Below are positions 40,525-41,787 of a stretch of 64,000 bases of DNA, piece by piece. A model generated the notes under the pieces. The model worked only from the letters and a program-made list of their open reading frames with translations. It made no database searches and was not told the DNA's origin. This DNA is from a virus (taxonomy: Duplodnaviria > Caudoviricetes), in the IMG/VR virus record IMGVR_UViG_3300011337_000669. One strand, written 5' to 3'. Numbering within the stretch: the first letter of the stretch is position 1; each line of letters opens with the position of its first letter. A program made the position numbers and the translations under genes.

Positions 40525-41787
40525 TTAACTTGTATGGTTATGAGATAGTTGTCCTGTTATCCTATCGCACCATCCTTTTGATACTGAGTGAGGCCAAACA
40601 ACCCAATGTGTTGGTAGTACTGTTGTAGGAAACTCTCTCCATACTTTACAATACTTATCAGGGTCTCTCATAAATCCATCAATTTCATTTTTGTCTGCGT
40701 CTCTTCGGTAAAGAGTTTCATCATTCGGTCCGTGGAATGCCACAACCCAAAAGTCATAATCGGTTTCAGTAACTTGTGAATATCCAATATCTATACAATG
40801 TTTAAATATTGTTGAGAAGCTATTTTTCCATTCTTCTTCATCTTCAATAACAGGACTTGGTGCGTATTTTTTATCTAAACAATGTTGGTCAACCGCTCTT
40901 TTTTCAAATAACAGTCCAGCATATCTTTCATACTCTCTAAGAGTTCTCACCGTTCCAAATCCGTATGGACCATCATGACCTTCTTGAGTTTCACCATCCA
41001 TACCGAATAGTTTTCTATTTGTTAAGTGAGAGTGTTTATTCTTATCTCCCCAAGCCTTATCATCATCCCATTGCTTAACGCGACCTTTACGAGTATATTC
41101 GTGATAAACAACAGGAATATGTGGGTGAAACAAATCATATCCATAGGTGTATGCTCTTGCTGCGATGGAGATTTCTTCTCCGTGGAAATAGTATTCAGGG
41201 TTGTGTTGTACTTCAGTAGAGAATTGTCCTAGAGTAAAACAGAAGTGAGCGGAATAGAATCTTGCAGTTACAGGTTTTGTCATTTCTCTCCAACCTGGAA
41301 TTGTTTCAGGTAAGAAGAATACTGCTCCTTCAGGGATGAATCTATCGAATGCCATTCTCCAAGCGTCTTGTGCTCTGCCTGCTGGATCATTTTCAGGGTC
41401 AAATGATGGTACATAACCTGTTAATAAAGGTTTCTTATATCCATCCTTTTGTAATCCTTTAATCATCTTAATTAGGACATCATCCCAATCTTTAATAAAC
41501 CTCATGTGAGAATCAATCTGTAAGGTATATTCTTCACCATCATAAAGTTGTTGAGTAAGATTTCTTGCGAAGCAAACACCTTTGGATTCTTGATAGGGGA
41601 TATCTAATATTTTGAATCTTTTATCTTTTCGATAATCTTCTAATTTATCAAAACCATCTTCATCACTAAATTGTCTTGCGATTGAGAATACTAAATTTTT
41701 AGGGTACTTAGCATTTGCCAACATATCTTTAATTGTTGGTTCTAATTGTGGGTCTCTATAAGAGGCTATCTGAATAAAAATTTTCAT
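40525..41787 (-). CDS. GT60-family polypeptide alpha-N-acetylglucosaminyltransferase-like protein
   Basis: IFIQIASYRDPQL...GVCFARNL...TLQIDSHMRFIKDWD...YFHGEEI..AARAYTYGYDLFHP...HEY. Confidence 0.8.
   Translation of the reverse strand: MKIFIQIASYRDPQLEPTIKDMLANAKYPKNLVFSIARQFSDEDGFDKLEDYRKDKRFKILDIPYQESKGVCFARNLTQQLYDGEEYTLQIDSHMRFIKDWDDVLIKMIKGLQKDGYKKPLLTGYVPSFDPENDPAGRAQDAWRMAFDRFIPEGAVFFLPETIPGWREMTKPVTARFYSAHFCFTLGQFSTEVQHNPEYYFHGEEISIAARAYTYGYDLFHPHIPVVYHEYTRKGRVKQWDDDKAWGDKNKHSHLTNRKLFGMDGETQEGHDGPYGFGTVRTLREYERYAGLLFEKRAVDQHCLDKKYAPSPVIEDEEEWKNSFSTIFKHCIDIGYSQVTETDYDFWVVAFHGPNDETLYRRDADKNEIDGFMRDPDKYCKVWREFPTTVLPTHWVVWPHSVSKGWCDRITGQLSHNHTS

Follow-up and report, generated by a model that had tools for sequence, protein, structure and literature searches.

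A GT60-family glycosyltransferase gene of a freshwater-type jumbo phage as a candidate initiator of O-glycosylation on neighbouring Thr/Pro-rich proteins

Introduction

A stretch of 64,000 nucleotides of tailed-phage DNA (IMG/VR virus record IMGVR_UViG_3300011337_000669; its full length is referred to as the window) carries at 40525-41787 a gene for a glycosyltransferase of family GT60, next to four genes for Thr/Pro-rich proteins. The question raised by this locus is which molecules the enzyme glycosylates. On the combined genomic and structural analysis, the best reading is that it may be an initiating transferase whose targets are Thr/Pro tracts in proteins that the phage itself encodes, and the probability of this reading is put at roughly 0.55. 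The window, which also encodes a tail sheath, a baseplate protein, a family B DNA polymerase and a helicase (~32-35% G+C), comes from a jumbo phage with a contractile tail, of freshwater type.

To our knowledge, GT60-initiated protein O-glycosylation is known from protists only, and measured glycosylation of phage virions has so far been limited to mycobacteriophages, with other acceptors. In Trypanosoma cruzi, the polypeptide α-N-acetylglucosamine (GlcNAc) transferases TcOGNT1/2 start O-glycans as GlcNAc-α-O-Thr on Thr-rich mucin-like proteins, and other transferases extend them (PMC9472816). Mycobacteriophage-encoded glycosyltransferases modify the phages' own structural proteins in the host cytoplasm, according to Freeman et al. 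(2023) as cited in PMC12619734, and glycosyltransferases are among the core genes of aquatic jumbo 'moraphages' of Bacteroidota, described in 2025 (PMC12619734). The literature on GT60 or PF11397 in phages was found to consist of two passing mentions: GT60 is listed in a preprint on the virome of a freshwater sponge, and a domain count for a giant algal virus includes one GT60 domain.

Family assignment and predicted structure

Membership of the product in GT60 is secure. Pfam PF11397 (GlcNAc), the counterpart of CAZy GT60, served as a proxy for the CAZy/dbCAN GT60 model and matched the protein with 217.9 bits (cut-off, 21; E = 3.7e-64), far above chance level, which confirmed the family call of a preliminary description made from the sequence alone; NCBIfam holds no model for GT60/PF11397. 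The three motifs named there, IASYRD and the patterns found as QIDSHMRFIKDWD (residues 90-102) and GEEISIAARAYTYGYDLFHP (residues 203-222), were all present and exact, except that the spacing written as 'GEE...AR' was one residue short. The protein has no signal peptide or hydrophobic segment (maximum 19-residue Kyte-Doolittle mean, 0.76). In a set of 5.8 billion proteins, more than 7000 of the 8000 scored candidates were PF11397-protein homologues; the best 120 were 73-92% identical, some of them on contigs of 200-330 kb, and PF11397 was carried by 120/120 among the matches listed. The family comprised 4505 clusters at 50% identity, some homologue clusters contained more than 1000 member sequences, and some proteins had two to four GT60 domains.

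An AlphaFold2 model was built from an alignment of 48 sequences, with homologues down to 35% identity, and had a mean predicted local distance difference test score (pLDDT) of 95.1. The closest reviewed (Swiss-Prot) model was that of Dictyostelium discoideum Gnt1 (Q8T1C6; E = 1.9e-24, 22% identity, query residues 2-324), and the matching AlphaFold clusters (AFDB) consisted of proteins named GT60 or GlcNAc. Among solved structures, polypeptide N-acetylgalactosamine (GalNAc) transferases occupied ranks 1-47 in Foldseek; when the PDB matches were re-aligned, ppGalNAc-Ts of GT27 took ranks 1-29 (Z, 19.1-22.1; root-mean-square deviation, 3.3-3.7 Å over 260-282 residues), and the ordinary GT-A enzymes SpsA, chondroitin polymerase, TarP and GlfT2 reached Z 16.7 at best. 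The kinship to ppGalNAc-transferases that had been proposed earlier was thereby upheld, and an ordinary GT2 enzyme was not the closest structure. A PDB search with the single GT60 sequence gave no chain at E ≤ 1, and with the 48-sequence profile it gave one chance-level match only (E = 0.19), to an unrelated uncharacterised protein; no GT60 structure was found by the PDB sequence search or among the top structural matches listed.

Membership in GT27 itself was rejected, because Pfam gave PF11397 only and the many GT27 structures in the PDB yielded no sequence match. The GT27 enzymes of animals and Toxoplasma share the GT-A core and, like the phage enzyme, have an additional C-terminal domain, but identity is 10-18%, and the GT27 architecture of a ricin-type β-trefoil lectin domain with an N-terminal membrane anchor is absent from the phage protein. 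Its own C-terminal domain (residues 325-413) was modelled separately with a pLDDT of 90; Pfam gave no significant match at the C-terminus, Foldseek gave none for this domain at E ≤ 0.001, and the top structural likeness was of FN3/Ig-like type (VIA; Z 7.3, a generic level), so that a ricin-type lectin domain was rejected here as well.

Within the 48-sequence alignment, I7, A8, Y10 and D12 of IASYRD were conserved in at least 90% of homologues, and W101, D102, F184, E204, E205, R211, G216 and H229 were invariant. D92-S93-H94 presumably corresponds to the DxH of GT27/GT60 enzymes, and the block G203-H229 may be comparable to the Gal/GalNAc-T motif, with H229 as the putative third metal-ligand His.

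Gnt1, which transfers α-GlcNAc to a hydroxyproline of Skp1, resembles the phage enzyme in Pfam family, in its soluble cytoplasmic nature and in the presumed DxH motif, and it acts directly on protein, as is proposed for the phage enzyme. It differs in that it has no C-terminal β-sandwich domain and modifies one hydroxyproline on one protein, whereas the phage enzyme adjoins proteins with hundreds of candidate sites. TcOGNT1/2 belong to the same CAZy family, and their mechanism is the one proposed for the phage enzyme; they are eukaryotic Golgi membrane proteins, whereas the soluble phage enzyme would act in the bacterial cytoplasm.

Thr/Pro-rich neighbours and a terminator-like hairpin

The four genes upstream of the GT60 gene, on the same strand, encode proteins with 1,035 Thr, 402 Pro and 290 Thr-Pro-Thr (TPT) motifs in total. 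Small globular modules are linked in them by Thr/Pro repeats, and their tips are Kelch-like (a weak Kelch_1 match in the 1557-residue protein, E = 0.003) or LamG (Laminin_G_3 in the 1077-residue protein, E = 1.5e-13). Pfam gave nothing significant for the domains between the Thr/Pro tracts, and no membrane segments or signal peptides were found in the four proteins. To judge by the LamG and Kelch-like tips in their sequences, they may be parts of the virion.

A gap of 75 nt separates the last Thr/Pro-rich gene from the GT60 gene downstream. The terminator that had been noticed in this gap was recovered as a hairpin of -16.1 kcal/mol (z = -5.1; equalled by 0 of 200 shuffles). A consensus terminator scanner reported no terminator in 39800-43300, the hairpin being missed because of an internal mismatch. 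Prediction of a complex of the GT60 protein with Mn and a 41-residue Thr/Pro segment of a neighbour gave a score of 0.00, which, obtained without controls, is evidence neither way.

The ten-gene operon

As the preliminary description had it, the GT60 gene heads its cluster: it is the first of ten genes with intergenic distances of -46 to +17 nt. The eight interior genes encode a methyltransferase, an RXYLT1_C-like protein, a GT2-like protein, two unknowns, a GT10 fucosyltransferase-like protein, a GT7C-like protein and one further unknown, and the last gene encodes an HtrL/YibB-like protein (against TIGR02192 its score was under the cut-off). Neither membrane segments nor signal peptides were found in the ten proteins, and no flippase, polymerase or phosphoglycosyl transferase was found in the operon, which fits stepwise assembly on a soluble cytoplasmic acceptor.

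The operon was compared across 154 GT60 loci of phages, and whole-genome comparisons were based on complete IMG/VR relatives of the window, among which G002 is a 321-kb genome with direct terminal repeats whose 35.6-83.6 kb region is collinear with the window. The HtrL-like gene was co-located with the GT60 gene in 139 of the 154 loci, including that of the cultured phage XacN1, and was the most constant genomic partner of GT60, ahead of the Thr/Pro genes; the two were separated by 0-8 genes, most commonly two. The eight-gene interior of the window recurred in two other loci only (L058 and L060), and positions 34640-40538 had no DNA counterpart in G002. A fixed first and last gene with a swappable middle is a cassette pattern much like that of an O-antigen locus.

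Conservation of the Thr/Pro-rich neighbour in related phages

In nearly every locus that could be evaluated and whose GT60 protein was at least 82% identical, the gene immediately upstream on the same strand was Thr/Pro-rich, as it was in groups at 74-76%, 69-70% and 59% identity; among close relatives its product ranged from ~200 to 1800 residues. In 48 dereplicated phage loci, the Thr/Pro-rich share was 19.8% for adjacent genes vs 3.3% for genes three or more positions off (p = 3e-8, without correction for shared ancestry). Mapping the adjacency label onto a tree of 107 dereplicated GT60 sequences called for 11-15 state changes. Two relatives (70% and 74% complete) whose GT60 gene had no Thr/Pro neighbour encoded Thr/Pro-rich proteins elsewhere, one of them of 3778 residues.

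Many contigs of close relatives from IMG/VR (L006-L085) stop within a few kb upstream of the GT60 gene, a pattern that fits assembly breaks in the Thr/Pro repeats, so that Thr/Pro genes are probably under-represented in metagenome assemblies.

Homologues in cultured phages were limited to the jumbo Xanthomonas and Stenotrophomonas phages XacN1, Xoo-sp13, CM1 and RAS14 (42-47% identity, 97-99% coverage), where their annotations say no more than glycosyltransferase or hypothetical protein. XacN1 shares with the window an HtrL-like gene, there four genes downstream of GT60, but has no Thr/Pro-rich gene in the 25-kb region examined.

Bacterial homologues

GT60 homologues of 36-47% identity occurred in isolates and metagenome-assembled genomes (MAGs) of many phyla, from which 80 loci in prokaryote assemblies were compared. 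Adjacent Thr/Pro- or Ser/Pro-rich genes were found in Gemmatimonadaceae, Opitutaceae, Prosthecobacter, Sediminibacterium, Saprospiraceae and one Ectothiorhodospiraceae MAG. In Ralstonia, Paraburkholderia and Achromobacter, a gene for a Thr/Pro-tailed VgrG lay ~1-4 kb downstream of the GT60 homologue. This VgrG (Phage_GPD + Gp5_trimer_C) ends in a (TP)n tract whose 50-residue windows are 100% Thr/Pro. On the chromosome of Ralstonia sp. 25C (L269:7950-13131), the GT60 homologue lies within a type VI secretion system (T6SS) cluster with TssF, TssG, ImpA_N, a fimbrial-like gene and TagF. The same Thr/Pro-rich open reading frame (ORF) was present ~3.8 kb downstream in Paraburkholderia, Trinickia and Achromobacter loci (L279, L250, L281, L254 and L275), and it was confirmed as VgrG in L269, L279 and L250. 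A (TP)n-tailed VgrG beside GT60 hints that the T6SS spike may be glycosylated, a modification not studied so far.

In Sphingobacterium zeae (L243:1505-9311) and Chitinophaga oryziterrae (L273:1521-9296), genes for a radical-SAM protein, an unknown, a C39-peptidase ABC exporter and two further unknowns precede the GT60 homologue, which is the layout of an export cluster for a modified peptide (ribosomally synthesised and post-translationally modified peptide (RiPP) or glycocin-like). The T6SS VgrG and peptide-export contexts point to polypeptide acceptors rather than polysaccharides.

These contexts bear on the possibility that the acceptor is not a protein, but a host lipopolysaccharide (LPS) core or capsule glycan on a lipid carrier, or modified bases of phage DNA. 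The name HtrL/YibB comes from a gene of the LPS-core region of E. coli, a GT9 gene lies near GT60 in XacN1, the cassette adjoins the DNA polymerase module, and relatives encode a thymidylate-synthase-family protein. DNA-glycosylating glycosyltransferases of phages are documented in work cited in PMC12619734. However, the fold neighbours of the enzyme are polypeptide transferases and the characterised GT60 enzymes modify proteins; all cassette proteins are soluble and the lipid-linked machinery named above is missing from the operon. The thymidylate-synthase homologue of the relatives lies 88 kb from the cassette and has the score of an ordinary ThyA (287-317 bits), and the two isolate groups checked by Pfam show T6SS or peptide-export clusters, not polysaccharide loci. 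A non-protein acceptor is therefore the least likely of the alternatives and is given little credence. Tet/JBP proteins were not found in the relatives, but control genomes gave nothing either, so that this search was uninformative.

Thr/Ser/Pro-rich proteins adjoining bacterial GT60 homologues (L253:9280-9831, L266:6460-8001, L272:4819-5457, L213:5997-7751 and L210:6504-7649) often start with a twin-arginine-like RRxFL sequence, and two have a C-terminal domain of type IX secretion system type. Export of folded proteins by the twin-arginine route would be compatible with prior glycosylation in the cytoplasm. The prokaryote-assembly matches of top identity (60-71%) were mostly contigs of MAGs with the label Saprospiraceae, Bacteroidia or Lewinellaceae; as part of them could be phage DNA binned wrongly, they give only a weak hint of a Bacteroidota host.

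Acceptor protein and acceptor residue

The initiating role on the adjoining mucin-like proteins, as first proposed, is one that we infer, and the adjacency proved to be common but not universal. Several observations weigh against it. Within 10 kb of GT60, a clade at ~66% identity and the loci L002-L005 are devoid of Thr/Pro genes. In a complete relative, nine Thr/Pro-rich ORFs are spread over six places, so that the presence of one within 10 kb counts for little, and a random 20-kb window of that genome holds such an ORF ~44% of the time. In bacteria, enrichment of the adjacency was not significant (5.1% vs 2.2%, p = 0.086, 59 dereplicated loci). Searches of cultured phages with a Kelch-like tip and with the 654-residue gene product encoded upstream of the Thr/Pro block gave no match. 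Finally, Gnt1, the closest reviewed homologue, is hydroxyproline-specific, and the relatives encode three oxygenases of the prolyl-hydroxylase family.

One alternative is that the enzyme acts on other proteins, such as capsid, tail, collagen-like Gly-Ser/Thr-Ser phage proteins or host proteins, and that the Thr/Pro adjacency is inherited gene order. The linkage of GT60 to HtrL is far more constant than that to Thr/Pro genes, entire clades have no Thr/Pro neighbour, XacN1 has the GT60-HtrL pair without a Thr/Pro gene in the examined region, and the relatives possess giant collagen-like Gly-X-Y proteins rich in Ser/Thr. Inherited order, however, accords poorly with an adjacency that recurs in separate phage branches and several bacterial phyla, with the label changes counted above, and with the T6SS clusters of Burkholderiaceae/Alcaligenaceae that pair a GT60 homologue with a (TP)n-tailed VgrG; moreover, Thr/Pro-rich proteins are encoded somewhere in every GT60-bearing relative genome examined. 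Action on other proteins was accordingly judged improbable, ranking second among the alternatives.

The collagen-like proteins are encoded by giant ORFs with long Gly-Ser/Thr-Ser (G-X-Y) repeats at 1-5417 and 319766-321139 of G002 and at 217351-223389 and 227266-231594 of G004. They represent a further large pool of hydroxyls that glycosylation genes might use.

The last of the observations above concerns the residue: a phage prolyl hydroxylase could first hydroxylate Pro of the T-P repeats, after which the GT60 enzyme would add GlcNAc to hydroxyproline as in the Skp1 pathway of Dictyostelium. Complete relatives with a GT60 protein 86-91% identical each encode three PF13640 2-oxoglutarate-Fe(II) oxygenases; those of G002 (28772-29065, 152970-153233 and 162023-162214) are weakly like prolyl 3-/4-hydroxylases and HIF prolyl hydroxylase (E = 1e-5 to 4e-7). 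Some algal GT60 domains stand within proteins named procollagen-lysine dioxygenase, and the four neighbours together contain 402 Pro. Yet PF13640-type oxygenases are common in aquatic phages, the oxygenase genes lie 40-225 kb from the GT60 cassette in the relatives, no PF13640 oxygenase is present in the window, and Thr, the acceptor of the mucin-acting GT60 enzymes (PMC9472816), exceeds Pro 2.5 to 1. Hydroxyproline ranks first among the alternatives, though with a low probability.

Proposed function

For an initiating transferase on the Thr/Pro tracts, we infer donor, acceptor, order of action and the virion status of the Thr/Pro proteins as follows. The enzyme would be a soluble, cytoplasmic, retaining GT-A enzyme of GT60, active during infection, which would add the first sugar to hydroxyls of the modular, fibre-like phage proteins, within their long Thr/Pro tracts. 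On the model of the characterised GT60 enzymes, this sugar would be an α-linked N-acetylhexosamine, probably GlcNAc from UDP-GlcNAc, and the acceptor residue would most likely be Thr, possibly hydroxyproline; α-GlcNAc on Thr is the primer made by TcOGNT1 on T. cruzi mucins (PMC9472816). The HtrL/YibB-like enzyme and strain-variable soluble glycosyl- and methyltransferases would extend and decorate the primer, with no lipid carrier or flippase involved, and the resulting mucin-like coat would vary in composition from one phage strain to the next.

In mycobacteriophages, glycans were reportedly measured on the C-termini of capsid and tail-tube subunits, in the work cited in PMC12619734. The system proposed here differs from theirs in that the candidate acceptors are separate giant Thr/Pro-repeat proteins and the initiating enzyme is of GT60.

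A wider proposal is put forward tentatively, at lower confidence than the initiating role: a widespread lineage of freshwater jumbo phages of ~320 kb might build a mucin-like glycocalyx in the bacterial cytoplasm, with GT60 priming hundreds of Thr or hydroxyproline sites on giant Thr/Pro-repeat fibre proteins and the HtrL-like enzyme and 0-8 swappable transferases following, so that each strain would have its own glycan, and the same family might act on the (TP)n tails of VgrG in Burkholderiaceae/Alcaligenaceae, as a general way of sugar-coating the appendages of contractile machines. If the Thr/Pro tracts are indeed primed by the phage enzyme, an abundant group of environmental jumbo phages would have a strain-variable mucin-like sugar coat made without a lipid carrier, which could influence host recognition, protease resistance, particle adhesion and grazing. 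Because the enzyme is small, soluble and confidently modelled, the idea is directly testable with peptides, and the enzyme could become a tool for cytoplasmic mucin-type glycosylation in bacteria.

Other features of the window

Coordinates are collected in Table 1.

Table 1. Features of the GT60 locus in the window (64,000 nucleotides)
Feature	Position	Strand	Basis or remark
GT60-family (PF11397) glycosyltransferase gene	40525..41787	-	ATG start, 420 residues, soluble
IASYRD motif, residues 7-12	41752..41769	-	first strand of nucleotide-binding fold
D92-S93-H94, presumed DxH-type metal/nucleotide-sugar motif	41506..41514	-	at least 90% conserved, 48 homologues down to 35% identity
G203-E204-E205 ... 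R211 ... G216 ... H229 block	41101..41181	-	48-homologue alignment
GT-A catalytic domain, residues 1 to ~300	40888..41787	-	AlphaFold2 model and structural matches
C-terminal β-sandwich domain, residues 325-413	40549..40815	-	no counterpart in Dictyostelium Gnt1
Terminator-like hairpin with U-rich tail	41802..41842	-	between last Thr/Pro gene and GT60
Thr/Pro-rich modular protein, 352 residues, candidate acceptor	41863..42921	-	76 Thr, 20 TPT
Thr/Pro-rich modular protein, 1557 residues, Kelch-like C-terminal repeats, candidate acceptor	43173..47846	-	500 Thr, 148 TPT
Thr/Pro-linker protein, 637 residues, Kelch-like C-terminal repeats, candidate acceptor	48144..50057	-	
Thr/Pro-rich protein, 1077 residues, C-terminal LamG/ConA-like domain, candidate acceptor	50084..53317	-	336 Thr, 101 TPT
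Variable interior, eight genes	33764..40513	-	Pfam; all products soluble
HtrL/YibB-like protein, 558 residues, conserved last cassette gene	32095..33771	-	Pfam PF09612, E = 8.7e-23

The T4 late-promoter box TATAAATA was not enriched in the window (15 found vs 10.5 expected). A second group of sugar-related genes, interleaved with nucleotide genes, lies at 58776-63999 on the plus strand. It encodes a GT-B-like protein, a PolB-type 3'-5' exonuclease, a dUTPase, a fused GT2_5 + GT4 protein and a UDP-glucose/GDP-mannose dehydrogenase, the last of which extends past the end of the window. At 24175-25713, also on the plus strand and flanked by the helicase region and a head-tail adaptor-like gene, a 512-residue protein is encoded whose N-terminal half is an Fe/Mn superoxide dismutase (Sod_Fe_N and Sod_Fe_C, E = 3e-39).

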